Assembly: GCA_964624555.1 (NCBI GenBank)
Contig: CAZUXB010000004.1
Coordinates: 5,825-69,824, forward strand
Source: an uncultured Rickettsiales bacterium
GTDB taxonomy: Bacteria; Pseudomonadota; Alphaproteobacteria; Rickettsiales; SXRF01
Direction: 5' to 3'
Length of the DNA stretch: 64,000 nucleotides
Shown here: one piece after another, positions 51 through 16,326 of the stretch
Numbering within the stretch: position 1 is the first letter of the stretch
Layout of the letters: each line of letters begins with the position of its first letter
The notes under the pieces: model-generated
Databases searched by the model: none
Told to the model about the DNA's origin: nothing
Seen by the model: the letters and a program-made list of their open reading frames with translations, nothing else
Made by a program: the position numbers and the translations under genes

Positions 51-3000
51 ATGAGTCTTGACGACTATATCAGAGACATACAGGAATTGCGTAGAGGAAA
101 TGTTCCTGAACATATTGCCAATGAATACAAAATACTTTCTCCCGATAATCCTATTACGCAAGCTTTTGCACCGCACATGCAAAAATTGTGGGAACGGCTG
201 ATCGGAGCAACCAACCAAGGCGGATATGATCCGCAAAAACATCAAGTCCGGTTTCTGCTTTCCGCTTCTGATGATGTGAATGCGTTTGTATTCACGGACT
301 CTGTGCCTCCAACGATTGTCTTAACTAAAGGTCTTATATCGAAACTTCAGACTGAAGGTGAAATAGCCGGGGTGCTGATGCATGAAAAACTGCATAGCAT
401 TCTTAAAGACCGGCTCGGCTTACATCCCAATAGCTATATGGAAGAAAGCGGCGCGGATATGTATGGTGCCTATGCGCTTTATAAAGCGGGCTTCCCACCC
501 GGCGAAATGGCCACCGCCCTTAATAAGTTGCCGCATGATGGCGTAGTTAATATGGTCGATAAGATGCTGCAGGTGGGTACTGATCCTCATCCACCGATAG
601 AAGAACGGGTGCGTGTGGTTGAAGACACCGTTGCGATATTGCAGAGACTACAAGGATTATCCACTGCAACATCGCAAGATATTGACCCAGCGTTCAAAGC
701 CCAGATAGCGAGTGCGACTTTTGAATCTGCATTCGGCAAAAGACTAGCAGCCATCACTGAGGAGGGAGTCGCACCTGCTGAACAGTTGCGCCGAGCAGCA
801 AATTTTATACCTGACCTGCAACGATTGCCGGACAATGAGTGGGCTGAAAGTCAGATTCAAAGATTTTTTACTGACTTAACAAAAATTGATATTAGCCCGT
901 CTCGGGAGGAAGATAAGCTGGCTTATAAAGAGTTCATGCAGCGTCTGTACGCAAAACCAGAAGCTGTTAGTCGCCGCTGGCAAAGAAGCTTAGTTTTAGG
1001 ACATTCAAATGGTGCTGTTGAGCATCTTGATCAAAAACTTGGCCTAGACAGGATACGTGATTTTAACACCCGAGCCGAATATGCCGGACTGCCAGCAAAT
1101 GAGATAAAGAAAGCTGCTCAGGGAATGATAGGAGCCGTAACGGAAGCAGAGTTCCTGACTCATGCAAGTAACCTTGCCCGCATGCTTGATGTTTATAATA
1201 CAGATAGCAATAGCTTAACATTAAAATTATCGGGTGTACTTTATAACTACCCTACGCAGGCTATTGACGCATCACAAGTTCAAGCAATAAATGATTCGAT
1301 AATACAGGCTGGTGATTCTCCGCAAGCTCTAAGCGAGGCAATTGCTAAACATGGAATAAAACTACCGTGGCATGACCATATTACGTGGGCGCAGCAAGCG
1401 ATGGCTGGCGGTCATCCTGAAGCAATGAAAGCGCTGCACTATCTGGGAATAGGTAATGTTGATCCAAGAGTAGCAGAATTTCCTGGGGTTTCTCCAATTG
1501 ATGGTGGCATCCATCAAAAGAGTAGGATGTTAATTAATCCTGCGAACGGTATGATTCAGGGAACGATTGACCGCAGGCAAGAGACTAGCTATTCGCGCCC
1601 GCTTAATCTGGAAAAAGAGAAAGAAAGACTCGCTGCGTTTGATCTTCAGCAAAAAGCAGCAGTAGCCACTGCTGATTGGGGGCTGCTGGAACGTGATTTC
1701 CATGAATTCACAAGGCAATATAAACGCTTCTTATCGCCACTTGGTACAGATTGGCCGGAATCAGCACCTTTTGCTCAGCGTTTCATTCAGGAATCGGAAA
1801 AATTACTGGCAAAAGACAGAGCTAAATATGCACCGCTGCTAAAAGAGTATTTAGGTATTACCGATGAAACCGCTGCCCATCTCAGGGACATTTATACGCG
1901 TGCCCAATCTAAAGATATTATAGAGTTAGCTAGAGCAGAGAGCGATTACAACAGGTTATCATATCATGCTCCTTATTCAGATAGAAGCATGGTGATGCGT
2001 CGTTCTGATGCTTTTTCAGATACTCATTTAGATATTATACAAGGCGGTAAATTTGAAATTCATCCAACACATCCATTTGTAGGGTTTGTGGTTCAGGATA
2101 AACATAATCTCTTCTCGGTTGCTGATAAAGTTGAGCTTCTAAGCGGTGTTGTAGGAGGATTTATCCATCCTATTGCAGCACCAGAGAGAGTTTATGGCTT
2201 TGCTACTCCCAATACCATGCAGGAATTACGCGCAGCGATGGATGTAGTTCGCACCAGCCCTCTTGATGCATCTTCAGACAGAGCAAATTATACGGGCATG
2301 GCCAATGACTATTTAAGATTTAACTATTTAGTAAACCATCCTGATGAAGCCTATTCGCGCCGTGATTTAGAACTTTTCACCTCTGTTCACAGATTAGACG
2401 GAAGCAACTTTAACGCTGGGGGATTGCCCGAACAGGATGTTATTAAAGCTATTTTAGCGAAACACAATGAACGCCTTGTTGCGCATGAGATTAGCCCACA
2501 GTCAACTTTGGAAGAAACGATACAAGGTTTCCGCCAATTCGCTGATGAAGGGAATTCGTACTTCAAACAGCATCCAGAAATACGCGTTCAGTATGAGCAA
2601 AAAATATTAGCCGGATTAGCACAATTAAGAGATGCCGATCCGCAGGAAGCCAGCCGCCTTACCAAAATGTTATTATATACCGAACATAAGGGGCATATTG
2701 GCCAGCTTGGTGCTCTACGTGGCAATGGCAAAACCATGACCCCTGAATTTTTGAATAGTAAATTCAAACAAGAGGTAATGTCCCATTATGTAGCCGCTCA
2801 AGCTGCTTTGCTTGGAACAGATGATTTAAGCCAGCAATATTCCACAAGGGCAAAGGCTGCCATTGACGAAGTAGTAGCGCGTGTTTCCGGCAATTCCCGC
2901 TATGAAATACTACGCGATCTAACCGACGCAGTAGTGTCCGGCAAAGAGGTTAGCTACTACGCACGCGATAGCTTAATGCGTATAACCAACGACCAGATAA

Positions 3001-6000
3001 GCCATGCTGATAATTCCCTACGCGGAAGTTATATGGCCAATCAATTCCTAGAGAAGAAATCTCCCGAAAGACAGGCAAGTTTTATAAAATTCTTGCGCGG
3101 AGGGTATGACGAACAAAGTGCAGTAGAATTTTTAAGAGTAATCGAAGATAGAGAAAAATACGAAGCGCTTAAGCTAAGAGAACAGGAGTTGCAGGAACAA
3201 GCAAAGGCCCAAAAAGCAAAGATTGCTATTATAGACCAAGCAATGGACGATAATCGTAAGCTCGCCGCACAAAATCAAGGTGAAGGATTTATTCCTACCG
3301 TTGCTTCCGAAGAGCGCAGTACACAACTATATAAAGAATATATTAAGTTAGAAGAGCAAAGGCGTGAACACGCATATGCAATCCACTCCATAGAAAGCGA
3401 ATTAGAAAATAAAGTAAAAACTGAGCTGCAAAACAGAGATTTTGCAACCACTAAACTTTGGAAACAAATAATAACCGGCGATGTTTACACTGATTCGGCT
3501 CCTGTTACTGAGGCGCAGAAAATCCTCTATCTGCAAATGCAGCATGATAATTTCTGGGCAATGTCCACAGAAGGGCGGACAATGGTATTGTCACGCCAGC
3601 TATTTCCTACTGACATGCCGGATGCAGAAGCTGAAGCCCATTTCCAGCAGCAAAAAAGTCGAATCTTAGCGGAGCAGCTTCCTGATAGCATGAAAAGTGG
3701 TTCTGATGCACGGGTGATTGCAGAAAAATATATGGAGCATATACCTCGTGCAGAAGCACGTTTGTTCCTGAGTGCGCTTATTGCCTCCCGTGACCCACGT
3801 GTTGCCCATGAGGCCTCGTTAGGTGATGCTATCGGCCTACTTGCCAAGGCAATGGGTTCTGCGGAAAACAAGCTGGCGCAGGTTGGGCATAGCCTTGAAG
3901 CAACACCTGATGATATTCGTGCAGGTCTTGCACATTCAAAAAGCGATTATAAAAAACCATCAAGATGGGCTTCGTTTGAGTGGATTGAAACGCATGGCCC
4001 ACCAGCAGCTGGGCAAGCCCATGTTGGAGCGTTACTGGGAGCAGGCTCATATAACGTAACGTGGCCATTGGAATACCCGGATGGACGGCAGACCGCACTT
4101 AATATGCTTCGTCCTTATGTTGAAGAAAGCTCAACTTACGGTTTTGATATTCTCGAAAAAACTGCACGGGCACTTGTAGCAGATGACAGGAAATACCAAC
4201 CACTCCTCGACCTAGTGCAGGAAACCAGACGGCAGTTTCCAAATGAAGTGAATACCCGCCTCGCTGCTGGACAGGCTATCGTTGCTGACCAGAACTACCA
4301 TGGCACAGTGGTTAAAGCAGGGGGATATGAATTTCATATCACCACGGCTGACTGGATCGCGCATGGTGACAGCTATAAAGAAACGCTTATTGCTCCCGGC
4401 AAACATTTTAGTGACTTGCCAGAATCAACATCGGCGGAGTTGGCATTTAAGAAGGCTGCTGCCAAAGCACTCTTTACGGTAGAACTTTCGCAATGGTCAC
4501 GAGGACATGCGACTGACCCTGACCGTCACGGTAAGCAGCAAAAGATTATCGCTGATCCGAATAATCCAACCGTAGCATTGGTTACTATGTTCGACCATGG
4601 GATGCAGAAACTAGATGCACCTTCACTTAAAACCCAAATGGTAGCAGGCAGGGCGATAGAAAGCGCGGTGGCACTATCTAAAAAGAGCGGCATTGGCTTC
4701 GGAGAAGCTTTGGCTAGTGTCATTGATGCAAAGGTCAGCGGTTATGCTGATAGTGTTCCGCCCGAGGAAATTCAGCATTTATCTTCACTTAAACGCGGGC
4801 TACTGCAAATGGGCGATTATGTTCAGTATATGGACAAAGCCGATATTGCTGAATCCATATCAGCCATACGTAAAGCCGGGGCAGTTTCAACCGGCTTAAA
4901 GCTTGGTATTATGCAAGAGCGTGTAAGCAGTGAAGGTGTTGCCGGATTACTGCCAAGGTTTGGCGGCAGTGAAGCAAAACCTGACCCTGCCAATAGAATT
5001 GTATTAGCGCATGATTTTGCTACTGTAGAACAAACTAAGCTTAGATTGAATCCATCCTATGCCGCACTGGTAAATCCTGCTCCGCCTAAACCCGTGTTAA
5101 CCATAGTTCCTGATACAGGCCAGCAAGTAGCACCGCCTCAAGAAAGTAATAGACCTGCCCCCGGTCCACGTGGCAACAGGCCCGGCTCATCATCAGTAAT
5201 TGGTATCGCACCACAACCTTTACCATTGAATACCACGCCAGTTGTCGGTGGATTGGCTTTGGTAGCAGAACTGCAAACTCCGCTTCAGCTTGCTCCGGCT
5301 ACTGAAACAATTGTATCTCCGGCACACATGCCTGCTGCTGCTAATGAGCCTAGCATCAATCCAACACCAAAAGCCGATGTTAAGCCAACTCCGCACACAC
5401 CAGTGACCACTGCACCAAAAGTTCACGCAGCTACACGTACCACTGGTTCCGCCGGTGCAGCACTTGGAATTAAAGGATTAGTGGATAGTTTTAGTGAAGG
5501 CGGAAGTTATCAAAAAGCGTCACAAGTTGGTGGTGAACAGCTTTACTCAGAAAGAGCGGCAATTGCCGGGGACGTTGCAGGCATTGCTACCGGCGCGGGT
5601 GATATTATAGGCAAAGCAAGTAAGGCTGTTCAATTTTTAGGACGTGCTGCTCCTATTGTTGCTGCTGGAGGCACAATTCTTAGAGTAAATGCTGCTGATA
5701 AAGCGCAAGATGGGCGCACAGGAATAGGAGCCATTACTGGCTTTGTAGGTGCTATGGGTTCAGGTGCCGCTACTGGTTTTGTCGCTGGTACTCAAACAGC
5801 AAATCCATGGGTTACAGCAGGGAGTGCGTTTGGTGGCGCATTGGTAGGTGGTTATCTGGCAACTGATGCCGGAAAGGAATCACAGCTTGGCGATCAAAGA
5901 CAACGCGATCTCGACCATGCGGCACAGGTAATTATAGATAAGAATATAGCTACCTTCCAGACACTGGAAAAAATGCGCTTATATGGTGGTATGTGGATTA

Positions 6001-6788
6001 AGCCAGAACGTATAACCGTCCGCCAAATTACTAAAGCAATGCATGAGCAGTATATGCGCCTGTCTGTTCTGGATATTCCGCCAACAGATATTGATGGTCA
6101 TATGCGTCTGGAATTCCAAAAACGCCAAACTTTGCAGTTTATTGATTACATGAACGGCAAAGAAGGTACGCCGATGCCACAAAGCAGTATTGAGGTAGCA
6201 AGTAACTTATCGCGCAAGCTTGATGCACTCCTGCCGCAGTTAAATGATCCGAAACTCGGCTGGCAGAAATATCTGGATGCTGACGGTGATGGCAAAGTAT
6301 CTCGTGCGGATGTATTGGCAACTCTCTCAAAATACGGCGCAGAGATACATACTCTCAGTATGGATGGGATTAACCTGACCATTGGCGAACTGACTGGTGC
6401 GCTAAAAGCATTGGGTGTTGATCAAGGAACAACTCGTACCGAGCGTGTAGGTCGCGCTATTCAAACCACTTCCTTAGTCCCACTTATTAACGATGAAGTT
6501 CATGAGAACTTTGGTGGTCGTGCAGGTTATGGTAAATTTATAGAGGCCATAAAAGCGCAGCTTCCAGCACTAGAAAAACTTGGTATTTCTAAGTATATCG
6601 GCAACGGCGATAGCAAGATTACCCTTGATGAAATCATGGACACCTGCAAGAAAAATGGTATTCGCATAAGCGAGATAGACCGCGACGGTGACGGAAAAAT
6701 AACCGCCGGGGAAATTGTTCAGGCACTACAAACACGGGGTATAGGAATGCCGCAAGCCAATGGAAAGAATGACTCTGGTCGTACGTAG
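51..6788 (+). CDS. Giant 2245-aa mosaic, effector-like protein: N-terminal M48-type Zn-protease motif, central ABC1/UbiB-like kinase-fold region, Pro-rich linker, Gly/Ala-rich hydrophobic segment, C-terminal EF-hand-like loops
   Basis: Uninterrupted 6.7-kb ORF. Protease motif: VLMHEKLHS (HExxH), then EESGADMYGAYALYKAGFPP (M48/BepA-like third ligand). ABC1/UbiB signatures in order: LGAGSYNVTW, TALNMLRP, NEVNTRLAAGQA, HATDPDRHGKQQ, MFDHGM. Pro-rich PPKPVLTIVPDTGQQVAPPQESNRPAPGPRGNRPG. Ca-binding loops DADGDGKVSRAD and DRDGDGKITAGE. Confidence 0.8.
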   Translation: MSLDDYIRDIQELRRGNVPEHIANEYKILSPDNPITQAFAPHMQKLWERLIGATNQGGYDPQKHQVRFLLSASDDVNAFVFTDSVPPTIVLTKGLISKLQTEGEIAGVLMHEKLHSILKDRLGLHPNSYMEESGADMYGAYALYKAGFPPGEMATALNKLPHDGVVNMVDKMLQVGTDPHPPIEERVRVVEDTVAILQRLQGLSTATSQDIDPAFKAQIASATFESAFGKRLAAITEEGVAPAEQLRRAANFIPDLQRLPDNEWAESQIQRFFTDLTKIDISPSREEDKLAYKEFMQRLYAKPEAVSRRWQRSLVLGHSNGAVEHLDQKLGLDRIRDFNTRAEYAGLPANEIKKAAQGMIGAVTEAEFLTHASNLARMLDVYNTDSNSLTLKLSGVLYNYPTQAIDASQVQAINDSIIQAGDSPQALSEAIAKHGIKLPWHDHITWAQQAMAGGHPEAMKALHYLGIGNVDPRVAEFPGVSPIDGGIHQKSRMLINPANGMIQGTIDRRQETSYSRPLNLEKEKERLAAFDLQQKAAVATADWGLLERDFHEFTRQYKRFLSPLGTDWPESAPFAQRFIQESEKLLAKDRAKYAPLLKEYLGITDETAAHLRDIYTRAQSKDIIELARAESDYNRLSYHAPYSDRSMVMRRSDAFSDTHLDIIQGGKFEIHPTHPFVGFVVQDKHNLFSVADKVELLSGVVGGFIHPIAAPERVYGFATPNTMQELRAAMDVVRTSPLDASSDRANYTGMANDYLRFNYLVNHPDEAYSRRDLELFTSVHRLDGSNFNAGGLPEQDVIKAILAKHNERLVAHEISPQSTLEETIQGFRQFADEGNSYFKQHPEIRVQYEQKILAGLAQLRDADPQEASRLTKMLLYTEHKGHIGQLGALRGNGKTMTPEFLNSKFKQEVMSHYVAAQAALLGTDDLSQQYSTRAKAAIDEVVARVSGNSRYEILRDLTDAVVSGKEVSYYARDSLMRITNDQISHADNSLRGSYMANQFLEKKSPERQASFIKFLRGGYDEQSAVEFLRVIEDREKYEALKLREQELQEQAKAQKAKIAIIDQAMDDNRKLAAQNQGEGFIPTVASEERSTQLYKEYIKLEEQRREHAYAIHSIESELENKVKTELQNRDFATTKLWKQIITGDVYTDSAPVTEAQKILYLQMQHDNFWAMSTEGRTMVLSRQLFPTDMPDAEAEAHFQQQKSRILAEQLPDSMKSGSDARVIAEKYMEHIPRAEARLFLSALIASRDPRVAHEASLGDAIGLLAKAMGSAENKLAQVGHSLEATPDDIRAGLAHSKSDYKKPSRWASFEWIETHGPPAAGQAHVGALLGAGSYNVTWPLEYPDGRQTALNMLRPYVEESSTYGFDILEKTARALVADDRKYQPLLDLVQETRRQFPNEVNTRLAAGQAIVADQNYHGTVVKAGGYEFHITTADWIAHGDSYKETLIAPGKHFSDLPESTSAELAFKKAAAKALFTVELSQWSRGHATDPDRHGKQQKIIADPNNPTVALVTMFDHGMQKLDAPSLKTQMVAGRAIESAVALSKKSGIGFGEALASVIDAKVSGYADSVPPEEIQHLSSLKRGLLQMGDYVQYMDKADIAESISAIRKAGAVSTGLKLGIMQERVSSEGVAGLLPRFGGSEAKPDPANRIVLAHDFATVEQTKLRLNPSYAALVNPAPPKPVLTIVPDTGQQVAPPQESNRPAPGPRGNRPGSSSVIGIAPQPLPLNTTPVVGGLALVAELQTPLQLAPATETIVSPAHMPAAANEPSINPTPKADVKPTPHTPVTTAPKVHAATRTTGSAGAALGIKGLVDSFSEGGSYQKASQVGGEQLYSERAAIAGDVAGIATGAGDIIGKASKAVQFLGRAAPIVAAGGTILRVNAADKAQDGRTGIGAITGFVGAMGSGAATGFVAGTQTANPWVTAGSAFGGALVGGYLATDAGKESQLGDQRQRDLDHAAQVIIDKNIATFQTLEKMRLYGGMWIKPERITVRQITKAMHEQYMRLSVLDIPPTDIDGHMRLEFQKRQTLQFIDYMNGKEGTPMPQSSIEVASNLSRKLDALLPQLNDPKLGWQKYLDADGDGKVSRADVLATLSKYGAEIHTLSMDGINLTIGELTGALKALGVDQGTTRTERVGRAIQTTSLVPLINDEVHENFGGRAGYGKFIEAIKAQLPALEKLGISKYIGNGDSKITLDEIMDTCKKNGIRISEIDRDGDGKITAGEIVQALQTRGIGMPQANGKNDSGRT

Positions 6789-6799
6789 TTTTCCTGCTG

Positions 6800-7282
6800 T
6801 TATTTGCTTTCATTTATCCAAAATACAATCACCAGTGCCAAACCAATTATTGCACTTACCAGTAACGAATGCCAAAGTTCTGAGAATGATGATGCAAACC
6901 AATTAATAATAGATGTTAGGATCGTTGCACTTGCTGCAAACCACCACCCTATAAATTCTGCTATAAGATTTTTGCGTAGCTCTGTTTTAGTATAAGGGGT
7001 GTTTTGCCACTTATTAATTCGTTTCTGAAGTTTCTTATCCAAAACATTTGCGTAGTCAGCGATTAGTGGCAGATTGCAGCGCATCCATGATAGAGCTTCC
7101 ATATCCATTGGACTTGGCAAATATTTTGTATCACTTTCTATAAGCTGCAATTGCCGCTCAATAGCTTCAAGCTGCATCGCCAATTTTCGTATATTATGCT
7201 TTTTACCTAGCAGCACATGATACCCCGACATAGTGAACGATACCACCAAGACAGTTAGTCTCAGTGGTGCCGGGTTGTTCAA
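6800..7282 (-). CDS. Hypothetical membrane protein (160 aa)
   Basis: ORF convergent with the giant gene, 11 nt between stops. Hydrophobic stretches LRLTVLVVSFTMSGYHVLL, WWFAASATILTSIINWF and VSAIIGLALVIVFWI. No family recognised. Confidence 0.5.
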   Translation of the reverse strand: MNNPAPLRLTVLVVSFTMSGYHVLLGKKHNIRKLAMQLEAIERQLQLIESDTKYLPSPMDMEALSWMRCNLPLIADYANVLDKKLQKRINKWQNTPYTKTELRKNLIAEFIGWWFAASATILTSIINWFASSFSELWHSLLVSAIIGLALVIVFWINESK

Positions 7283-7762
7283 AAAGCTGTAGTGAAACAG
7301 CCACGGCGTTTTTAGCCGAAGCCTGTTATATGTGCGCCGTCAACCCGACCTACTGGTCGAGAGACAGCATCAATCACGGTCTGATGCAGAACCGTTCACT
7401 AAGGGCTTTTTGAAGACCCAACACCTTATGAGTGTCATGGAAACCATATCATGAATAATCAGCGCGTCAAACAATCCCTGAAAAATCAATTTTGCATAAT
7501 CAATTTATTATTGCTCCTCTCTAGGACTGTTGCTACTGAAAACACCATAAATTTGCTCTTCGCACACGCACGTGTACACAGCTGTGCTAACTAATATTCA
7601 GTTATGTTATATAATTCAATCGGTTGATATTTTAGCAGAGGTGCGTTGACGTGCTAATTGCTAATATCATGATATTTAATGATAAAACGCTCATATTAAT
7701 CAATAATGCAAAAATATATGCTAATTAATCAATGTTATTTTTTATTGATTACACAAAATTGA

Positions 7763-8494
7763 TTAATCATAGCTGAGTAAATGCTCTTCAGATAGCAATG
7801 CACGAAAAGTATTTAAGGCGACCTTATTTTCCGATGTTCGAAATTTTGAGAGATATTTATGTGCTGACATTTTGGTACCGGCGCTAGAAGTAGCATAACT
7901 TTCAAGAAAGCTCATAAATTCACTAATTGATTTTCTGTCGAGTCGATCCGCATCTTTATTGCTAATTAGTTTTTTTACTGCATTATCTTCAATAGATTCT
8001 GCTAATTTAGATGCTGCAAATATTGGATTTTTTTTCTCAGCAGAATGGGCAATGAGTATAGTTCTTACACACCAAGCAATTCTTTTGTTCATGATTGTAT
8101 GATTTTCGAAAGTTTTAGAGTAATGTACTAAAAACCATCCAAGATCAGAAGCATGTTCTATTTCTTGACTGTAAGAATCTCGAAAGCGGAACTGTTTCTT
8201 TAAGCATTCAAAGAATCCATTTTGATCGTGGAGCGGTTGAGCTTCATAAACAATATGACAAACAAATAAATCACCACTTTCCGCCTTTTGAATTAGTTGA
8301 TTTTGTGGATAGAAAGATAAAGAAAAGTTAACTTCTAAAATATGCTTAGGCTTTGTATCGGGCGTTACTAAAAGAATATCCGTATCGGAAGCTTCTTCGT
8401 GATCGCCTCTAGCCCTACTGCCAAAAAGTGCAGCAGCAACAATTGAGGAATTATCCTCATAAAACTGAGAAAATTCTTTTATTCTAGTTTCCAT
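7763..8494 (-). CDS. Pol-beta/MNT-type nucleotidyltransferase-domain protein with helical C-terminal tail carrying a candidate HEPN-like Rx5H motif
   Basis: 243-aa ORF whose start overlaps the upstream WYL gene by 11 nt. LFGSRARGDHEEASDTDILLV fits the minimal NTase signature (GS-x10-DxD). The C-terminal half contains RTILIAH. AT-rich: hand count 19/60 G+C in 7801-7860. Confidence 0.75.
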   Translation of the reverse strand: METRIKEFSQFYEDNSSIVAAALFGSRARGDHEEASDTDILLVTPDTKPKHILEVNFSLSFYPQNQLIQKAESGDLFVCHIVYEAQPLHDQNGFFECLKKQFRFRDSYSQEIEHASDLGWFLVHYSKTFENHTIMNKRIAWCVRTILIAHSAEKKNPIFAASKLAESIEDNAVKKLISNKDADRLDRKSISEFMSFLESYATSSAGTKMSAHKYLSKFRTSENKVALNTFRALLSEEHLLSYD

Positions 8495-9422
8495 TATTTT
8501 CCGTACAGAAATTTTTTAATGCTTCTGCCGCCCTTACGCGGGCTTCATCTCGTGCATTTTCAATTTCAAGTCTATTTAACAAAATTATCTGCTGTTTATC
8601 AGGCTTTATTTTTCCTGGCTCTACATCTAAATTATACTCATTCATTAGATAAAAAGTTAGGCTAATTCGCGTGGGAATAACTAACTTTCCATCTTTCATA
8701 TCATATTCTGTGCTTATTGCTTTTTGTTTATCCGCAGAAAGTTCTGGATTTGGAGTGATAACCAAATTGATCATTTCGTTCCAAGCAATATCACATATTG
8801 ATTTATCAATTGAAGGGTTGGCCTCAAATACCTGAGAAATTCGACCTAGATGAAAGTCATTAAAATTGTCATGTTCTTTACACCATGCACGGATATACCA
8901 ACGTCCTGCACTGTTAATGAGTGTATGTGGAACTATATGTCGCACAACATCAGCTTTGCCGCTCATGGAATTGTAGTTGATTCTAAGCTCAAGCTTATTT
9001 CGGATAGCATCTAGAATTGCTAGCAGTAAAGATGATGAAGTAGATTTCCCCTTTAAAGTAACAATTTCAGCGGGTGGAAGGGTATCAAACCACGTATCTT
9101 CTTTTTTTATAAAACCACTTTTAATTCCCATAAGTTGCAGAAGATAGCGGTCAGTATTATGTCCAATCAAGCATGGCTTGAATGCCGAGCGACGTATAAA
9201 TGCTTTTCGGGCATTATCATATTCTAAGTTAGCAGGTGCCAATTCTTGATATTGGCTAATATCAGCAGATGCCTGCTGCGCAGATATATTGAAAACGTCA
9301 ATCAAATCTTTTCGGTTGAAGTACCCGTCCCACAATAAACGGAAATCAATGAATTCTAATCGGCGTTGTACTCCCCAGCGCACGGAATCCGGCAAAGAAA
9401 CAGGCACATCTTCATTATTCAT
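8484..9422 (-). CDS. wHTH + WYL-domain transcriptional regulator (CapW/BrxR-like architecture)
   Basis: 312 aa. N-terminal HTH-like RLEFIDFRLLWDGYFNRKDLIDVFNISAQQASADISQYQ. WYL-type core GRWYIRAWCKEHDNFNDFHLGRISQV, followed by a ~100-aa C-terminal extension. Divergent from the Thoeris operon. Confidence 0.75.
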   Translation of the reverse strand: MNNEDVPVSLPDSVRWGVQRRLEFIDFRLLWDGYFNRKDLIDVFNISAQQASADISQYQELAPANLEYDNARKAFIRRSAFKPCLIGHNTDRYLLQLMGIKSGFIKKEDTWFDTLPPAEIVTLKGKSTSSSLLLAILDAIRNKLELRINYNSMSGKADVVRHIVPHTLINSAGRWYIRAWCKEHDNFNDFHLGRISQVFEANPSIDKSICDIAWNEMINLVITPNPELSADKQKAISTEYDMKDGKLVIPTRISLTFYLMNEYNLDVEPGKIKPDKQQIILLNRLEIENARDEARVRAAEALKNFCTENNGN

Positions 9423-9454
9423 AAAAAACCCATCAAATAACTTGACGCACTCGG

Positions 9455-9489
9455 CTGGATAATGTATCCAGTTACTAGATGCATCTAGT
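9455..9489. promoter_or_regulatory. Two adjacent palindromes in the divergent control region; candidate operators for the WYL regulator
   Basis: CTGGAT-aatgt-ATCCAG at 9455-9471 and the perfect 16-mer ACTAGATG|CATCTAGT at 9474-9489. They lie 33-67 nt upstream of the WYL start and 51-85 nt upstream of the first plus-strand ORF. Confidence 0.45.
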
Positions 9490-9539
9490 TTGTTGTCTGA
9501 TTATACACTGTTAACCCAATGAATTAAAGGAAAAAGATT

Positions 9540-9725
9540 ATGGTGAAAAAACCAGGAGAATCAACAGGAAATTGCGGGGGGATCTTTCAGGAGGTGGGGC
9601 CGCGTGGTGGGGTAAAGCCTAATTATGCGACAGTGGCCGACAATCATCGTCTGCCACCGACTCAAACAAGTGGCGGCGGCTGGAAACCTATTAAAGTTAC
9701 TCCTGATAGCTTTCGTAAATCCTAA
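9540..9725 (+). CDS. YjzC-like small protein (61 aa), first cistron of the Thoeris-containing operon
   Basis: AAGGA-type SD about 9 nt upstream. KKPGESTGNCGGIFQEVGPRGG...HRLPPTQTSGGGW follows the YjzC-family pattern as I remember it (PGE..G.Y.E.GPRGG....LPPT...G..W). Confidence 0.5.
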   Translation: MVKKPGESTGNCGGIFQEVGPRGGVKPNYATVADNHRLPPTQTSGGGWKPIKVTPDSFRKS

Positions 9726-9779: not shown

Positions 9780-10271
9780 ATGGCAAGAAAAGTATTTTTT
9801 AGCTTTCATTATGATCGCGATGTAAGGCGGGTTGTGCAGGTGCGCAATTCATGGGTTGTGCGTGGTGAGAAAGAGGCTCAACCATTCTTGGACAAAGCAG
9901 AATGGGAGTCGATTAAGCGTACGGGAGATAGAGCCGTGGAAAAATGGATCGAAGAGCAACTTAACGGCACATCTGTTACCGTAGTGCTTATCGGCGCAGA
10001 GACTTATGATCGTGAGTGGGTGAAGCACGAAATTAAGCGGAGTTACGAACTGAAAAAAGGTATAATCGGTATTTATATCCATAACATTAAAGACCCACAA
10101 AAGGGAACAGATACAAAGGGTAGGAACCCCCTAGACCATTGGCACATCACCAGTAATGGCCAAAAGCAAATGTTTACTAGTCTTTATAAAACTTATGATT
10201 GGGTTGCTGATAATGGCTATCAAAACTTCTCGGCGTGGGTTGAGACTGCTGCTAAAGCTGCAGGAAGGTAG
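9780..10271 (+). CDS. thsB: Thoeris ThsB, TIR-like (DUF1863-type) protein
   Basis: MARKVFFSFHYDRDVRRVVQVRNSWVV, VVLIGAETYDREWVKHEIKRS (WVxxE catalytic-Glu context) and YKTYDWVADNGYQNFSAWV closely follow the Bacillus cereus ThsB pattern as I remember it. Confidence 0.85.
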   Translation: MARKVFFSFHYDRDVRRVVQVRNSWVVRGEKEAQPFLDKAEWESIKRTGDRAVEKWIEEQLNGTSVTVVLIGAETYDREWVKHEIKRSYELKKGIIGIYIHNIKDPQKGTDTKGRNPLDHWHITSNGQKQMFTSLYKTYDWVADNGYQNFSAWVETAAKAAGR

Positions 10272-10276
10272 TAAAT

Positions 10277-10783
10277 ATGCCGATATCACTTCACACTCTG
10301 CGTTCAACTGGAAGCGTTCTCCAAAAGGCTCATAATATCTCAGAGGCGCGTACACTTGGAGCGCAAACTGCTTTCCTGTGTCATAGCCACAAGGATAAAG
10401 ACTTAGTGCAAGGCGCGGTCGCCCAACTCCATAAAGCTGGATGGAACGTATACGTAGATTGGGCAGACGCGGCGATGCCGGAAACGCCCAATCGGGAAAC
10501 AGCAGCTAAAATTAAGGATAAGATCGTTGAACTGACATTCTTTCTATTCTTAGCTACCCCTAATTCGATGAATTCAAAATGGTGTCCGTGGGAATTAGGT
10601 TATGCCGATGGGAAAAAGGACATTGAAAAAATTCTCGTAATTCCTACCAGTGATAATGGCTCCACTTATGGCAGCGAATATCTTCAATTATACCGGCGCG
10701 TTGATGTTGGTGGTTCCGGCTTATTAGAAGTATTTTCACCAGGATATCAGCATCACAGCACTTCATTCAGAAATTTATATTAG
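10277..10783 (+). CDS. thsB: Second, different TIR-domain protein (ThsB-like)
   Basis: Starts 5 nt after thsB. AFLCHSHKDKDLV...GWNVYVDW...FLFLATPNSMNSKWCPWELGYADG fits the canonical bacterial TIR layout (SHxxxD start, conserved Glu in WELG). Confidence 0.8.
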   Translation: MPISLHTLRSTGSVLQKAHNISEARTLGAQTAFLCHSHKDKDLVQGAVAQLHKAGWNVYVDWADAAMPETPNRETAAKIKDKIVELTFFLFLATPNSMNSKWCPWELGYADGKKDIEKILVIPTSDNGSTYGSEYLQLYRRVDVGGSGLLEVFSPGYQHHSTSFRNLY

Positions 10784-10791
10784 AGGTTGGA

Positions 10792-12225
10792 ATGAACAGG
10801 GAAATAGAAGCTTTTATCAATGATTTTGTGAACGATCTGGCTGCAAACAATGCAGCGATTTTCGCAGGCGCCGGCATGTCAAAGAATACAGGGTATGTAG
10901 ATTGGTCAGGTTTACTTGATGATATCGCAACACGTCTGGGTTTGCAGATCGATAAAGAGAATGATCTCGTATCTCTAGCTCAGTATCACGTAAATGAAAG
11001 TGGGCGCGCTTTATTAAATAAAAAAATTATAGAAGAATTTGTTGAAGATAATGATATTACTGAAAATCATCGTATCTTAGCTAGGTTGCCTATTTCGACT
11101 TATTGGACGACGAATTATGACCGTTTAATCGAAAATGCCCTAAAAGAAGCGAACAAAAGAGCGGATGTAAAATTTGCTGTTGAGCAAATTTTTAATACAC
11201 ATCCTAGACGTGATGCAGTTGTATATAAAATGCATGGCGATGCGACTTTACCTGCGCAGGCTATTTTGACCAAAGAAGATTACGAACGATATCATGTAAC
11301 TCATGAAGCATTTATCAATGCTCTTACTGGCGACCTCACTACTAAAACTTTTCTTTTTATTGGATTTAGTTTTGCTGACCCAAATCTCGATTATGTCTTA
11401 AGTCGCATAAACGTAAGACATCGTGAGTATAAACGCGATCACTACTGCTTTATTAGGCGTCCAAAGTTAGGAGAAAAGGAAAGCGAAAGCAGAGCAGATT
11501 TCGATTATAATAGTAGGAAACTGCAACTAAGATTAGGAGAGCTAAAGCGTTACGGAATTCAGCCTCTTCTAATCGATGAGTACCATGAAATCAGAGAAGT
11601 TCTCGAAGAAATAGAAAATCGCTTTAGAAAACGCACTGTGTTTATTTCTGGCAGTGCAGAAGAATATGGCGATTGGAATCGTAATGAAGCTCAACAATTC
11701 GTTCACAAACTAAGCAAAGCACTAATTATTCAAGGCTATCGCATAGTAAATGGATTTGGCTGGGGAATTGGCAGTGCCGTAATCAACGGTGCGCTTGATG
11801 CAGTATATGAAAGGCCCGATAAATACAGCGAAGATCAGCTTATTATGAAACCATTTCCCCAGTTCCAAACGGGGGATAAAGCACTTCCTGATTTGTGGGA
11901 AGAATATCGTCAAAGAATGATCGGGCTGGCTGGTATTTCAATCATTATATTTGGAAATAAGTTAGACAAGGGAACGATTGTAAATGCAAACGGCGTTAGG
12001 CGTGAGTTCGAAATTGCTAGGCAACATGATTTGGTGCCGATACCGATACCAATAACTGGATATATGGCTAAAGAAATCTTTGATGAGATTTCACAAGACT
12101 TCGATTCCTTATACACCGAGAACAAAAAAATAATACCTTTGGTAAAGGGACTTTCTTCGCTTGCTCACAACGATGTAGATAAAATCGTTCATAAAATAAT
12201 AGAGATACTAAAAAAGGTGAACTAG
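10792..12225 (+). CDS. thsA: Thoeris ThsA: N-terminal SIR2 NADase + C-terminal SLOG signal-binding domain
   Basis: 477 aa. IFAGAGMS (NAD-binding GAG), WTTNYDRLIE (catalytic Asn) and VYKMHGDATLP (catalytic His). C-terminal VFISGSAEEYG...GFGWGIGSAVINGAL...IIIFGNK...REFEIA is SLOG-like. GAGG SD 8 nt upstream. Confidence 0.9.
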   Translation: MNREIEAFINDFVNDLAANNAAIFAGAGMSKNTGYVDWSGLLDDIATRLGLQIDKENDLVSLAQYHVNESGRALLNKKIIEEFVEDNDITENHRILARLPISTYWTTNYDRLIENALKEANKRADVKFAVEQIFNTHPRRDAVVYKMHGDATLPAQAILTKEDYERYHVTHEAFINALTGDLTTKTFLFIGFSFADPNLDYVLSRINVRHREYKRDHYCFIRRPKLGEKESESRADFDYNSRKLQLRLGELKRYGIQPLLIDEYHEIREVLEEIENRFRKRTVFISGSAEEYGDWNRNEAQQFVHKLSKALIIQGYRIVNGFGWGIGSAVINGALDAVYERPDKYSEDQLIMKPFPQFQTGDKALPDLWEEYRQRMIGLAGISIIIFGNKLDKGTIVNANGVRREFEIARQHDLVPIPIPITGYMAKEIFDEISQDFDSLYTENKKIIPLVKGLSSLAHNDVDKIVHKIIEILKKVN

Positions 12226-12237
12226 GAGCAGGTCGCT

Positions 12238-13050
12238 ATGAAATTTGCGCTGGTAAACGGATATAAAACTGAACCTCAGCCAAAGCTGCATGGTATCTGC
12301 GCACATTGCCATAGTGAAACAGTTTCGAAATGCGGAGATGCAAAGGTTTGGCATTGGGCGCATAAAAACAAGCTCTCATGTGATATATGGTGGGAGAACG
12401 AAACGGAGTGGCATAGGGTGTGGAAAAATCATTTCCCTACAGAATGGCAGGAAATTAGCCATTCTGATCCTTTAACCGGCGAAAAACATATAGCGGATAT
12501 TAAAACAGAAAATGGACTGGTAATAGAGTTCCAGCATTCTGCAATCCAACCCACCGAGATGAAAAGCCGTGAGGCTTTCTATAAAAATATGATATGGGTT
12601 GTTGATGGGACACGTCTAAAGAGAGACTACCCACGCTTCCACAAAGGGCTTAGGAATCTGGGGCTGGTAAAACAAGGGGTTTTCCTTTCGCCTTTCCCTG
12701 AAGAAAGTTTTCCAGCAAGCTGGCTTACAAGCTCGGTACCAGTTTATTTTGATTTTCAAGGCATGAATCCTATTGATGAATCAGATTGGAGCCAACCGCT
12801 TCTTTGGGGGATATTTCCAAATCGTGTAGAAGGGCGTGTTATAGTTGCTGCGTTCTTACGCAAGGAGTTTATCGAATCTCCTCACTTACTTTTGGGGCAT
12901 GAGGTCTTTAATATGATTTCAGAGTATATTCAGGAGCAGCGTGAAAAAACAACAGTTAACGTCCAAAAACAATCTCTGCAATTACCTCGCCAACAGCATA
13001 TGGTAATACCCATGCGAATGAGAAGGCCAAGAAGATATAGGCGTTTCTAA
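12238..13050 (+). CDS. CoiA-like (competence protein CoiA family) putative nuclease, last cistron of the operon
   Basis: Starts 12 nt after thsA with an AGGAG SD. Zn-ribbon-like CAHCHS...KCGD...WHWAHK, then GEKHIADIKTENGLVIEFQHSAI matching the CoiA core (D-x-...-E-F/Y-Q-x-S). Basic tail RMRRPRRYRRF. Confidence 0.7.
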   Translation: MKFALVNGYKTEPQPKLHGICAHCHSETVSKCGDAKVWHWAHKNKLSCDIWWENETEWHRVWKNHFPTEWQEISHSDPLTGEKHIADIKTENGLVIEFQHSAIQPTEMKSREAFYKNMIWVVDGTRLKRDYPRFHKGLRNLGLVKQGVFLSPFPEESFPASWLTSSVPVYFDFQGMNPIDESDWSQPLLWGIFPNRVEGRVIVAAFLRKEFIESPHLLLGHEVFNMISEYIQEQREKTTVNVQKQSLQLPRQQHMVIPMRMRRPRRYRRF

Positions 13051-13240: not shown

Positions 13241-13317
<77 letters not shown>

Positions 13318-14913: not shown

Positions 14914-16326
14914 ATGTTGGAAGCAATTACAGATTTCTGGAAACCAGTAAAAAAAGTTTCGCCACCAAAAATAAAACTGATTGATATGCAGATAGGTACT
15001 GTGGTCAGTTTTGGCTTTGTTCCACAGTCGGTGCTGAGTGGGCGGAAGCTGACTGTTACCGCTATTAATAGTTATCAATTCGGTAAGGATGTACTCACAT
15101 CTTTTGTTCTTGGCAGTGAAAAAGGCGAAGAAGTTTCCATGATTATCGCCGAGGCACAGGGTGAGCAATATCTCGCCATCTCCAGACGCATTGCGATTAA
15201 AGACCGGGAGAAACTATTTGATGCTGGTTCTATTGAAATTATAACCGGCAAGAATGAAGCCGGACAGTTTACCTGCAAGGATAACATACCGGAATTGAAA
15301 GGCTGGCTGGTCAGCAACTATAAGCGTGAAATCCAGGGGATGCGCGGCTATATTCATCATGCTGATTTCAGGGATGGCAGCGAAGTGCCGCAATCGGGCA
15401 AGGAGTTCCAGTATACACTTCTTGGCAGCAGCAGTAATGAGCATGCCATAGAAATAGAATCATACCAGGATGGGCATGTTGATGTATATGCGACCGTCTA
15501 CCGCCGCACCAGCGATATCAACGAAGTTATCCATCAGGCAGTGGCGCGGGAAGATGTTAAATTGACACTAGTTAACGAGCCTGAAAAACCGGATGAAAAA
15601 TCTGCCGCAGAGCCTGTGGCAGTAAAAGATGTGGCAGCACCGGCAGTTGTGGAAACGCCAAAAGCAGAACCTGCCAAGCTGGAAATAGTAAAAGAAGAAG
15701 CTAAAGCTGAGCCGCCAAAATTAGAGTCGGTAAAACTGGAGTTGCTGGCCCTGCCTGAACTAATAATAACTCCGCTGGCACCGGAGATAAAAAAATCAGA
15801 AACAACCCCTGAAGCTGTAAAATCTGAACCGAAGCCTGCTTTGGTAAAGGCTGACAAAGAAACTGCCAAAGAAAATAATATTACAAAAAATAACAACGAG
15901 GAGAAGAAAATTATGTCAACTGCAACTAACGAAAATAAACCGATAAACGGTACCTCTGGTTCAGACCTGAAGCCAGTTCCGAGTTTCGGAAGCATAAATA
16001 AAGATTTTATACAGGAGATCAAACCCGTGACAAAAACAACAAATGGTATGGAGAATGATTCTCTGGAATGCGATCTGCGTATAGCCAACCAGATCATTGA
16101 CGAAGCCATCCGCAATGAAATGCGCCTGTCCGATGTGGTGCGCCGTATCATAGAACTTCCGGTAGCACATCAGGAAGCGGTGCAGATTCCTATCAACCTT
16201 GCTGATGAAGATTATTCACTGCTTGCTATCCGCTATGGCATCCCGGCCTCTGACCGCCATGCCATAAAGCTGCGCATCATCCAGGACCTTGGTGATTTCT
16301 CCGGTTCCAAGAAGAAGGTGAATTAG
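14914..16326 (+). CDS. Hypothetical protein (470 aa) with a Lys/Glu/Pro-rich repetitive linker; N-terminal part possibly DUF4178-like
   Basis: Long ORF. Central KAEPAKLEIVKEEAKAEPPKLESVKLE repeats. The family assignment is only a weak impression. Confidence 0.6.
   Translation: MLEAITDFWKPVKKVSPPKIKLIDMQIGTVVSFGFVPQSVLSGRKLTVTAINSYQFGKDVLTSFVLGSEKGEEVSMIIAEAQGEQYLAISRRIAIKDREKLFDAGSIEIITGKNEAGQFTCKDNIPELKGWLVSNYKREIQGMRGYIHHADFRDGSEVPQSGKEFQYTLLGSSSNEHAIEIESYQDGHVDVYATVYRRTSDINEVIHQAVAREDVKLTLVNEPEKPDEKSAAEPVAVKDVAAPAVVETPKAEPAKLEIVKEEAKAEPPKLESVKLELLALPELIITPLAPEIKKSETTPEAVKSEPKPALVKADKETAKENNITKNNNEEKKIMSTATNENKPINGTSGSDLKPVPSFGSINKDFIQEIKPVTKTTNGMENDSLECDLRIANQIIDEAIRNEMRLSDVVRRIIELPVAHQEAVQIPINLADEDYSLLAIRYGIPASDRHAIKLRIIQDLGDFSGSKKKVN

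Follow-up and report, generated by a model that had tools for sequence, protein, structure and literature searches.

A CoiA-like nuclease gene behind a type I Thoeris operon in an uncultured Rickettsiales bacterium probably represents independent, mobile island cargo

Two described systems lie closest to the gene treated here. The competence protein CoiA of Bacillota (Streptococcus pneumoniae CoiA, Bacillus subtilis YjbF) consists of the domains CoiA_N, CoiA_nuc and CoiA_C in a protein of about 320-370 residues, and type I Thoeris consists of ThsA (SIR2-SLOG) and ThsB (TIR). The active site of CoiA comprises a PD-ExQ motif and a conserved arginine (PMC1189080). Pneumococcal CoiA is a monomeric, structure-specific endonuclease that requires the catalytic residues D95 and E105, nicks 5′-tailed junctions of single-stranded and double-stranded DNA and resolves the displacement loops (D-loops) of transformation; true CoiA is reported to be competence-induced (bioRxiv 10.1101/2024.02.06.579203) and, by a criterion of >50% profile coverage, bona fide CoiA is reported to be restricted to Bacillota (Hardy et al., bioRxiv 10.1101/2024.02.06.579203). 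Our analysis concerns a 270-residue CoiA-like protein encoded directly behind thsA in 64,000 nucleotides of DNA (the window) from an uncultured Rickettsiales bacterium (GenBank assembly GCA_964624555.1, contig CAZUXB010000004.1, positions 5,825 to 69,824). A preliminary description of this DNA regarded the gene as the fifth member of a Thoeris variant and possibly its second effector. On balance, we favor a different view, in which it encodes an independent, horizontally mobile single-gene nuclease that is carried as island cargo, is not a component of Thoeris and would have a role in genetic conflict.

The N-terminal region of the protein contains C21-x2-C24, C32, a WHWAHK segment (H39, H42) and C48-D49, and is predicted to form a C2H2-type zinc finger (C21, C24, H39 and H42, plus C32 and C48). 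The stretch HIADIKTENGLVIEFQHS (residues 84-101), with D87 followed by E97-x-Q99, belongs to a putative PD-ExQ nuclease core whose predicted catalytic residues, E53, D87, E97, Q99 and R111, are intact. At the C terminus lies an arginine-rich tail, MRMRRPRRYRRF (window 13015-13047), ending in RRF. Two Pfam domains score above their cut-offs, CoiA_N at residues 20-50 (27.4 bits, cut-off 26.3) and CoiA_nuc at residues 91-131 (23.4 bits, cut-off 20.3), the latter over profile positions 44-88 of 158 only. The zinc finger, CoiA-type core and Arg-rich tail are as the preliminary description had them, and its assignment of the protein to the CoiA-related nucleases of PD-(D/E)XK type is borne out by the conserved catalytic residues and by the predicted fold. 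In an AlphaFold model (predicted local distance difference test score, pLDDT, 80; predicted template modeling score, pTM, 0.70; residues 60-170 at pLDDT >90) the core is alpha-beta-beta-beta-alpha-beta (helix 57-63, strands 71-76, 83-89 and 95-99, helix 105-114, strand 118-123); D87 is placed on strand 2 (83-89), E97 and Q99 are placed on strand 3 (95-99), and the modeled strand order is the canonical PD-(D/E)XK one. The core is followed in the model by a family-specific domain (approximately residues 125-215), a long helix (221-248) and the disordered Arg-rich tail; the C-terminal domain has no significant match in the PDB. The weak matches in BFVD are mostly PD-(D/E)XK nucleases, and a viral structure library gave significant matches to uncharacterized phage and giant-virus proteins, at expectation (E) values of 1.8e-14 to 2.5e-05. 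The structural relatives include A0A3G5A717 and A0A3G5ABC4 of Hyperionvirus, A0A516L083 and F2Y1A9, and some of them lie inside longer proteins (424-615 residues).

How far the likeness to competence CoiA extends can be read from an hhalign comparison with Listeria CoiA (probability 96.5%, E 7.6e-10). The alignment is confined to residues 5-126, pairs the zinc fingers, and places HIADIKT...VIEFQHS of the window protein against RQADIFV...VIEFQRS. The window protein and CoiA of Bacillota also have in common the N-terminal C-x2-C...H-x2-H zinc finger, the PD-ExQ core, in which D and E are equally spaced (D87/E97 here and D95/E105 in the pneumococcal protein), and a conserved Arg that follows it. 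In Listeria CoiA all three Pfam domains are present, CoiA_nuc at full length and CoiA_C at 2.9e-53, whereas the Pfam scan found no CoiA_C in the window protein, for which the hhalign alignment ends at residue 126. Because its CoiA_nuc match falls short of 50% coverage (positions 44-88 of 158) and CoiA_C is absent, the window protein, judged by its sequence, carries the CoiA catalytic module yet lies outside the strict competence CoiA family. It is shorter than canonical CoiA, has an unrelated C-terminal domain of its own and ends in a ...RRRRF tail that canonical CoiA lacks; its gene is located in a defence island rather than in a competence context, and its relatives, unlike Bacillota-restricted CoiA, are horizontally spread over many non-Bacillota phyla and mobile elements. 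A search of deposited phage genomes found no full-length relative and only two matches, at 35% coverage, in unverified Listeria 'phage' records, both of which fall on a canonical three-domain CoiA gene. Public annotation already names these proteins "competence protein CoiA family", and the family is thus not unseen. Our literature search found no paper on a non-Bacillota CoiA-like family and none that ties CoiA to Thoeris.

Relatives of the window protein were counted in two ways, by a word-indexed search (E<=1e-3), which returned 4,802 homologues, and by an exhaustive profile search of representatives of clusters at 50% identity, which returned 5,017, 1,228 of them at E<=1e-30. With thousands of homologues, the CoiA-like open reading frame (ORF) is a real gene rather than a chance ORF. 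The best relatives, 60-66% identical, come from Coxiellaceae, other Gammaproteobacteria and Omnitrophota (metagenome-assembled genomes), and members with 43-55% identity come from Bacteroidota, Alphaproteobacteria, Chlamydiae, Elusimicrobiota, Planctomycetes and candidate phyla. In an alignment of 31 members, C32, H39, W40, H42, C48, D49, E53, Q71, E72, H84, D87, E97, F98, Q99, S101, R111 and E112 are invariant, and C21 and C24 are each kept in >90%. Among 76 full-length members from species genomes, 71 have both CxxC..HxxH and D..ExQ, 67 have at least four Arg or Lys among their last ten residues, and 54 terminate in Phe or Leu, typically as ...RRRRF or ...RRRRL. The longer members (390-472 residues) contain no extra Pfam domain. 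The conserved ...RRRRF C terminus, which matched no nameable motif, points to a partner or substrate yet to be found; nucleic-acid binding and docking of a partner are the obvious ideas, and a secretion signal is a speculative one.

The family appears to be carried between genomes horizontally, as mobile accessory cargo. Members are 45-66% identical across distant phyla, and two copies may occur within one genome (L006/L007, L012/L016). When three proteins on each side of family members were clustered all against all, 422 neighboring proteins fell into 376 clusters, and there is thus no conserved partner; in Pfam and PADLOC scans of 147 immediate neighbors, no family was present in more than 3 of them. 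Those neighbor families that do recur are mostly of mobile-element or defence type (Gabija-like GajA/GajB, Vsr, integrases, SNF2/ResIII helicases and Type ISP restriction enzymes), and a few are enzymes of metabolism. Mobile-element or conflict hallmarks were present in seven of the nine contexts annotated with Pfam: two integrases with Fic and TraG; an M78 peptidase upstream with ResIII and GmrSD/HNH downstream; a serine recombinase with RmuC and a type I restriction system; P4-type primases and AlpA; an HTH-M78/DUF4411 pair; and Phd/ParE with an IS110 element. A relative was found on 52 plasmid records, and the six plasmid loci that were inspected adjoin relaxase/coupling-protein and ArdC-like genes, Tn3 transposases and integrases, with a RES-Xre toxin-antitoxin pair, ParB-N proteins and an Abi protein as further neighbors. 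Among viral and proviral contigs (IMG/VR), 63 loci have a relative, and the inspected ones adjoin a serine integrase or terminase/portal genes, which are usual positions of accessory cargo. In a separate locus (L053, 1439-13769) the family member lies in a segment of about 12 kb between two tRNA-Asn (GTT) genes, an arrangement suggestive of an integrated element whose attachment site has been duplicated.

The same distribution bears on two readings in which the host gains no defence. A nuclease of recombination or establishment might serve the element that carries it, by helping plasmids, integrative elements and prophages to process their own incoming or replicating DNA or by countering host defences. 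Canonical CoiA acts on D-loops of transformation, the plasmid members lie beside relaxase/coupling-protein, ArdC-like, ParB-N and DUF736 genes that are typical of transfer or leading regions, and other members are found at prophage ends and in giant viruses, all of which would suit such a function. Many members, however, occupy chromosomal spots without a recognizable element, or sit among defence genes; the family lacks a conserved partner helicase like RadA or ComM, and neither an integrase nor a relaxase is near the gene in the window, so we regard service to the element as unlikely. Still less probable, in our estimation, is a selfish free-standing endonuclease that spreads in homing-like fashion by cutting empty sites and benefits neither host nor element. 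A single gene with ever-changing neighbors, present in several copies per genome, distributed over phages, giant viruses, plasmids and chromosomes and often inserted within a few bases of unrelated genes, is what such a selfish gene might look like, but conservation extends over the whole length of the protein across phyla, including the non-catalytic C-terminal domain and the tail, and neither a conserved target gene nor a conserved flank was observed, the neighbors being unrelated between loci.

Independence from Thoeris was examined in both directions. In the forward test, ThsA and ThsB of the window were searched by tblastn over 80 species-representative genome loci of the CoiA-like family, with up to 10 kb of flank, and over the 63 viral or proviral loci; in the reverse test, the CoiA-like protein was searched by tblastn in 18 metagenomic loci whose ThsA is 43-71% identical to that of the window. 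Thoeris lies within 10 kb of a CoiA-like gene in one of the 80 genomic loci, about 8 kb away and not adjacent, and in none of the 63 viral or proviral loci, and a CoiA-like gene is present in none of the 18 related Thoeris loci, most of which hold one or two thsB genes. Besides the window, a CoiA-like gene and Thoeris (thsA with several thsB) occur together only in that single genomic exception (L026, 1-2300 and 10001-10642), where they probably share a defence island rather than an operon. In addition, a same-strand upstream gene lies within 30 nucleotides of the family member in 12 of 74 loci, and among those examined are genes for a restriction endonuclease, Vsr and an M78 peptidase. Members of the family thus tend to follow unrelated genes closely, and such spacing is not a signature of Thoeris. 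Because the association recurs in neither direction and tight spacing is common, the pairing in the window appears to be a one-off juxtaposition, and the CoiA-like gene is very probably independent of Thoeris, a neighbor of it in a defence island. The relevant features of the window are as follows.

7763-8494, minus strand: HalB-like nucleotidyltransferase gene, overlapping the WYL gene by 11 nucleotides (NCBIfam anti_phage_HalB)
8484-9422, minus strand: WYL (BrxR-like) regulator gene, divergent from the string of the 61-residue ORF, Thoeris and the CoiA-like gene (Pfam, PADLOC, comparison with L116)
9540-9725, plus strand: conserved 61-residue ORF, first of the same-strand string and part of the WYL/BrxR module, not of Thoeris (homologues, comparison with L116)
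9780-10271, plus strand: thsB copy 1, ThsB_TIR (Pfam; PADLOC, 5e-71)
10277-10783, plus strand: thsB copy 2, TIR (Pfam; PADLOC, 1.7e-63)
10792-12225, plus strand: thsA, SIR2 plus STALD/SLOG, the type I Thoeris effector, a neighbor of the CoiA-like gene and very probably not its partner (Pfam; PADLOC, 1.7e-200)
12224-12228, plus strand: AGGAG ribosome-binding site of the CoiA-like gene (read directly from the sequence)
12238-13050, plus strand: putative CoiA-like nuclease gene, 270 residues, ATG start (ORF call, motifs, Pfam, alignment, model)
13241-13317, minus strand: tRNA-Pro (TGG), right-hand edge of the low-GC island (followed by dapA, smpB and rpoN)

These coordinates confirm the placement of the gene 12 nucleotides past thsA with an AGGAG site. 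The stop codon of thsA occupies 12223-12225 and is overlapped by the AGGAG site, which lies 9 nucleotides upstream of the CoiA-like ATG, and no terminator-like hairpin or site was found between the two genes. Based on these features, the CoiA-like gene is probably transcribed by read-through from thsA, and the co-expression proposed earlier is likely in view of the 12-nucleotide spacing. The two ThsB proteins and the SIR2-STALD ThsA upstream nevertheless form a canonical type I Thoeris system that is complete without the CoiA-like gene. The thsB-thsB-thsA order of the window (9780-12225) differs from that of the closest related Thoeris loci (L088, L092, L100), which are arranged thsA-thsB-thsB, with ThsA up to 71% identical.

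The layout speaks for an accessory or second effector of Thoeris, that is, for a CoiA-like nuclease that is activated during infection, directly or indirectly, and adds DNA cleavage to the depletion of nicotinamide adenine dinucleotide (NAD+). The gene follows on the same strand with a good ribosome-binding site, the gap resembles those at the other junctions of the operon (54, 5, 8 and 12 nucleotides along the string from the 61-residue ORF through thsB, thsB and thsA to the CoiA-like gene, of which 5, 8 and 12 are the operon junctions), and L026 provides a second locus with Thoeris within about 8 kb. Against this stand the lack of recurrence in the genomic, viral and related Thoeris loci, the tight placement of other family members behind unrelated same-strand genes, the completeness of related Thoeris operons that have no CoiA-like gene, and the domain content of the protein: Pfam revealed CoiA_N and CoiA_nuc only, with neither a TIR domain nor any domain able to sense a TIR-made nucleotide (SLOG, STALD, Macro, SAVED). 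Thus, although the gene is adjacent to type I Thoeris and probably co-transcribed with it in the window, it is not a recurrent neighbor and lacks the recognizable signal-sensing domain of a Thoeris part, and we consider the accessory role very improbable. The second-effector proposal of the preliminary description is not upheld by these results, and the survey of genomes that it called for, in search of CoiA-like genes beside thsA, found no recurrent association. Its statement that a CoiA-like protein is not a described Thoeris component does hold, its alternative of an independent defence by one gene may still apply, and the structure prediction that it suggested returned, at the level of a model, the expected nuclease fold with D87 and E97/Q99 on the core strands.

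The five genes of the string lie in a low-GC stretch (GC 0.33-0.45, compared with 0.47 for the whole window), bounded on the left by the gene for a 2,245-residue protein and on the right by tRNA-Pro, beyond which lie the housekeeping genes dapA, smpB and rpoN. By GC and by GC at third codon positions (GC3) the CoiA-like gene could not be distinguished from Thoeris or from the remaining island. A search for an attachment-site-like repeat of tRNA-Pro bounding the island found none, and the ORFs and Pfam matches near the CoiA-like gene in the window include no integrase, relaxase or other element machinery. Domain matches in the 2,245-residue protein (window 51-6788) are limited to an M48-type metallopeptidase motif at the N terminus (HEKLH; Pfam, 4.3e-09) and EF-hand calcium-binding motifs at the C-terminal end; the protein may be a large secreted effector. 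Between smpB and rpoN, a 470-residue ORF (window 14914-16326) has a middle part that by eye is repetitive and rich in Pro, Glu, Lys and Ala, and it has no Pfam match.

We propose that the CoiA-like gene is the last of a string of cargo genes in the low-GC island beside tRNA-Pro, and that it would be read through from the Thoeris operon, possibly under control of the divergent BrxR-like regulator. Because the catalytic module is common to CoiA, a structure-recognizing endonuclease is to be expected; by likeness to the pneumococcal protein, the product would be a metal-dependent, structure-specific DNA endonuclease, which may nick junctions of single-stranded and double-stranded DNA or D-loop-like branches rather than act as an exonuclease. 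The zinc finger and the Arg-rich tail may hold the nucleic acid or a partner. The genomic neighborhoods lead us to favor a role in conflict, in which the product of a self-contained gene, as a candidate nuclease of defence or exclusion, would cut invading phage or plasmid DNA at its replication or recombination intermediates, acting in parallel with, and independently of, signaling through glycocyclic ADP-ribose (gcADPR) and NAD+. More speculatively, and with some doubt on our part, the short CoiA-like family as a whole could be an unrecognized class of single-gene immune or exclusion nucleases that reside on plasmids, proviruses, satellites and defence islands and cut branched or single-stranded-double-stranded junction intermediates.

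Several observations weigh against the reading of the gene as independent conflict cargo. The part of it that assigns a defence or exclusion role is drawn entirely from genomic neighborhood and is therefore put forward as tentative. Several immediate neighbors in the 80 loci are housekeeping enzymes, two of the nine Pfam-annotated contexts are ordinary chromosomal neighborhoods, and proximity to tRNA genes, tried as a marker of islands, was dropped, since its frequency (16 of 55 loci) is about the background level. In the reference collections, no system-protein family of PADLOC v2.0.0 matched at E<=0.01, there was no match among NCBIfam models or PHROGs, and, for solved structures, a sequence-profile search found nothing and Foldseek against the PDB gave nothing significant (best E 0.11), although nearly all of the weak top matches there have what we take to be PD-(D/E)XK-type folds (YaeQ, bunyavirus cap-snatching endonucleases, Rai1 and the Cas4-like SSO0001). 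A search for runs with the sequence found a wastewater DNA metagenome only, and no RNA run. Finally, a functional connection confined to this lineage would likewise account for the 12-nucleotide coupling to thsA, and there is room for it because this exact locus has no close relative (best homologue 66% identical).

Comparison with other known systems provides one defence precedent, component B of PD-lambda-4, in which the first 66 residues correspond to the zinc ribbon at the N terminus of CoiA (Vassallo et al. 2022; PMC9519451 supplement). This validated anti-phage protein offers a precedent for that domain in defence, but PD-lambda-4 comprises two genes, the other encoding an ATPase/helicase-like partner, and the zinc ribbon alone is common to it and to the window protein. 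For PADLOC v2 we assume that models of the PD-lambda systems are included, and the window protein matches no PADLOC model. Stand-alone PD-(D/E)XK nucleases of mobile elements (T7 endonuclease I-like resolvases, Vsr/DUF559 and PD-(D/E)XK homing endonucleases) resemble it in predicted fold and in their single-gene, element-borne lifestyle, and they appear among its weak structural matches; in contrast to these likenesses, no sequence or structural match to them is significant, the best E being 0.01 or worse.

The first gene of the same-strand string has a history of its own. The 61-residue ORF is a real conserved small protein (12 homologues, 66-92% identity), and the label "YjzC-like" given to it in the preliminary description found no Pfam YjzC match even at E 0.1. 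A segment of the window (7764-9694) with the 61-residue ORF and the WYL/BrxR and HalB-like genes is 75% identical at the DNA level to another locus (L116), which has a 92% identical copy of the small ORF; the DNA similarity ends at both edges of the module, and downstream of the small ORF that locus encodes a metallo-beta-lactamase-fold protein and unknown genes, with no Thoeris. Another homologue adjoins ribonucleotide reductase genes. A shared module followed by different genes implies that the regulator module is the conserved unit and that the cargo behind it is exchangeable. The 61-residue ORF is not a Thoeris gene, and since it travels with the WYL/BrxR and HalB-like module and the Thoeris-CoiA pairing does not recur, the five-gene Thoeris variant of the preliminary description is not supported. 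The HalB-like, WYL/BrxR and 61-residue genes (window 7763-9725; L116 4226-6186) together look like a regulator cassette with exchangeable defence cargo. The nucleotidyltransferase (7763-8494) scores 228.6 bits against the NCBI equivalog model of the Hailong protein HalB, above the cut-off of 190, and no HalA partner is recognizable next to it in window positions 6800-7762, where a 160-residue ORF on the minus strand (6800-7282), by eye apparently membrane-spanning, matches no HalA model and the 480-nucleotide stretch 7283-7762 contains no ORF of at least 50 residues.

A Thoeris variant of five genes, one of them for a second effector directed at DNA, would have been of consequence, but the pairing on which it was based is a one-off. 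The locus instead exemplifies a BrxR-type regulator module with exchangeable downstream cargo, and it draws attention to approximately 5,000 clusters (at 50% identity) that carry the name "competence protein CoiA family", are devoid of CoiA_C, occur outside Bacillota and behave as mobile cargo. If the family should prove to consist of immune or exclusion nucleases, several thousand entries under that name would be mis-named defence genes. If its members are nucleases of defence or of conflict between elements, the biology of CoiA-type structure-specific endonucleases would extend from natural transformation to genetic conflict.

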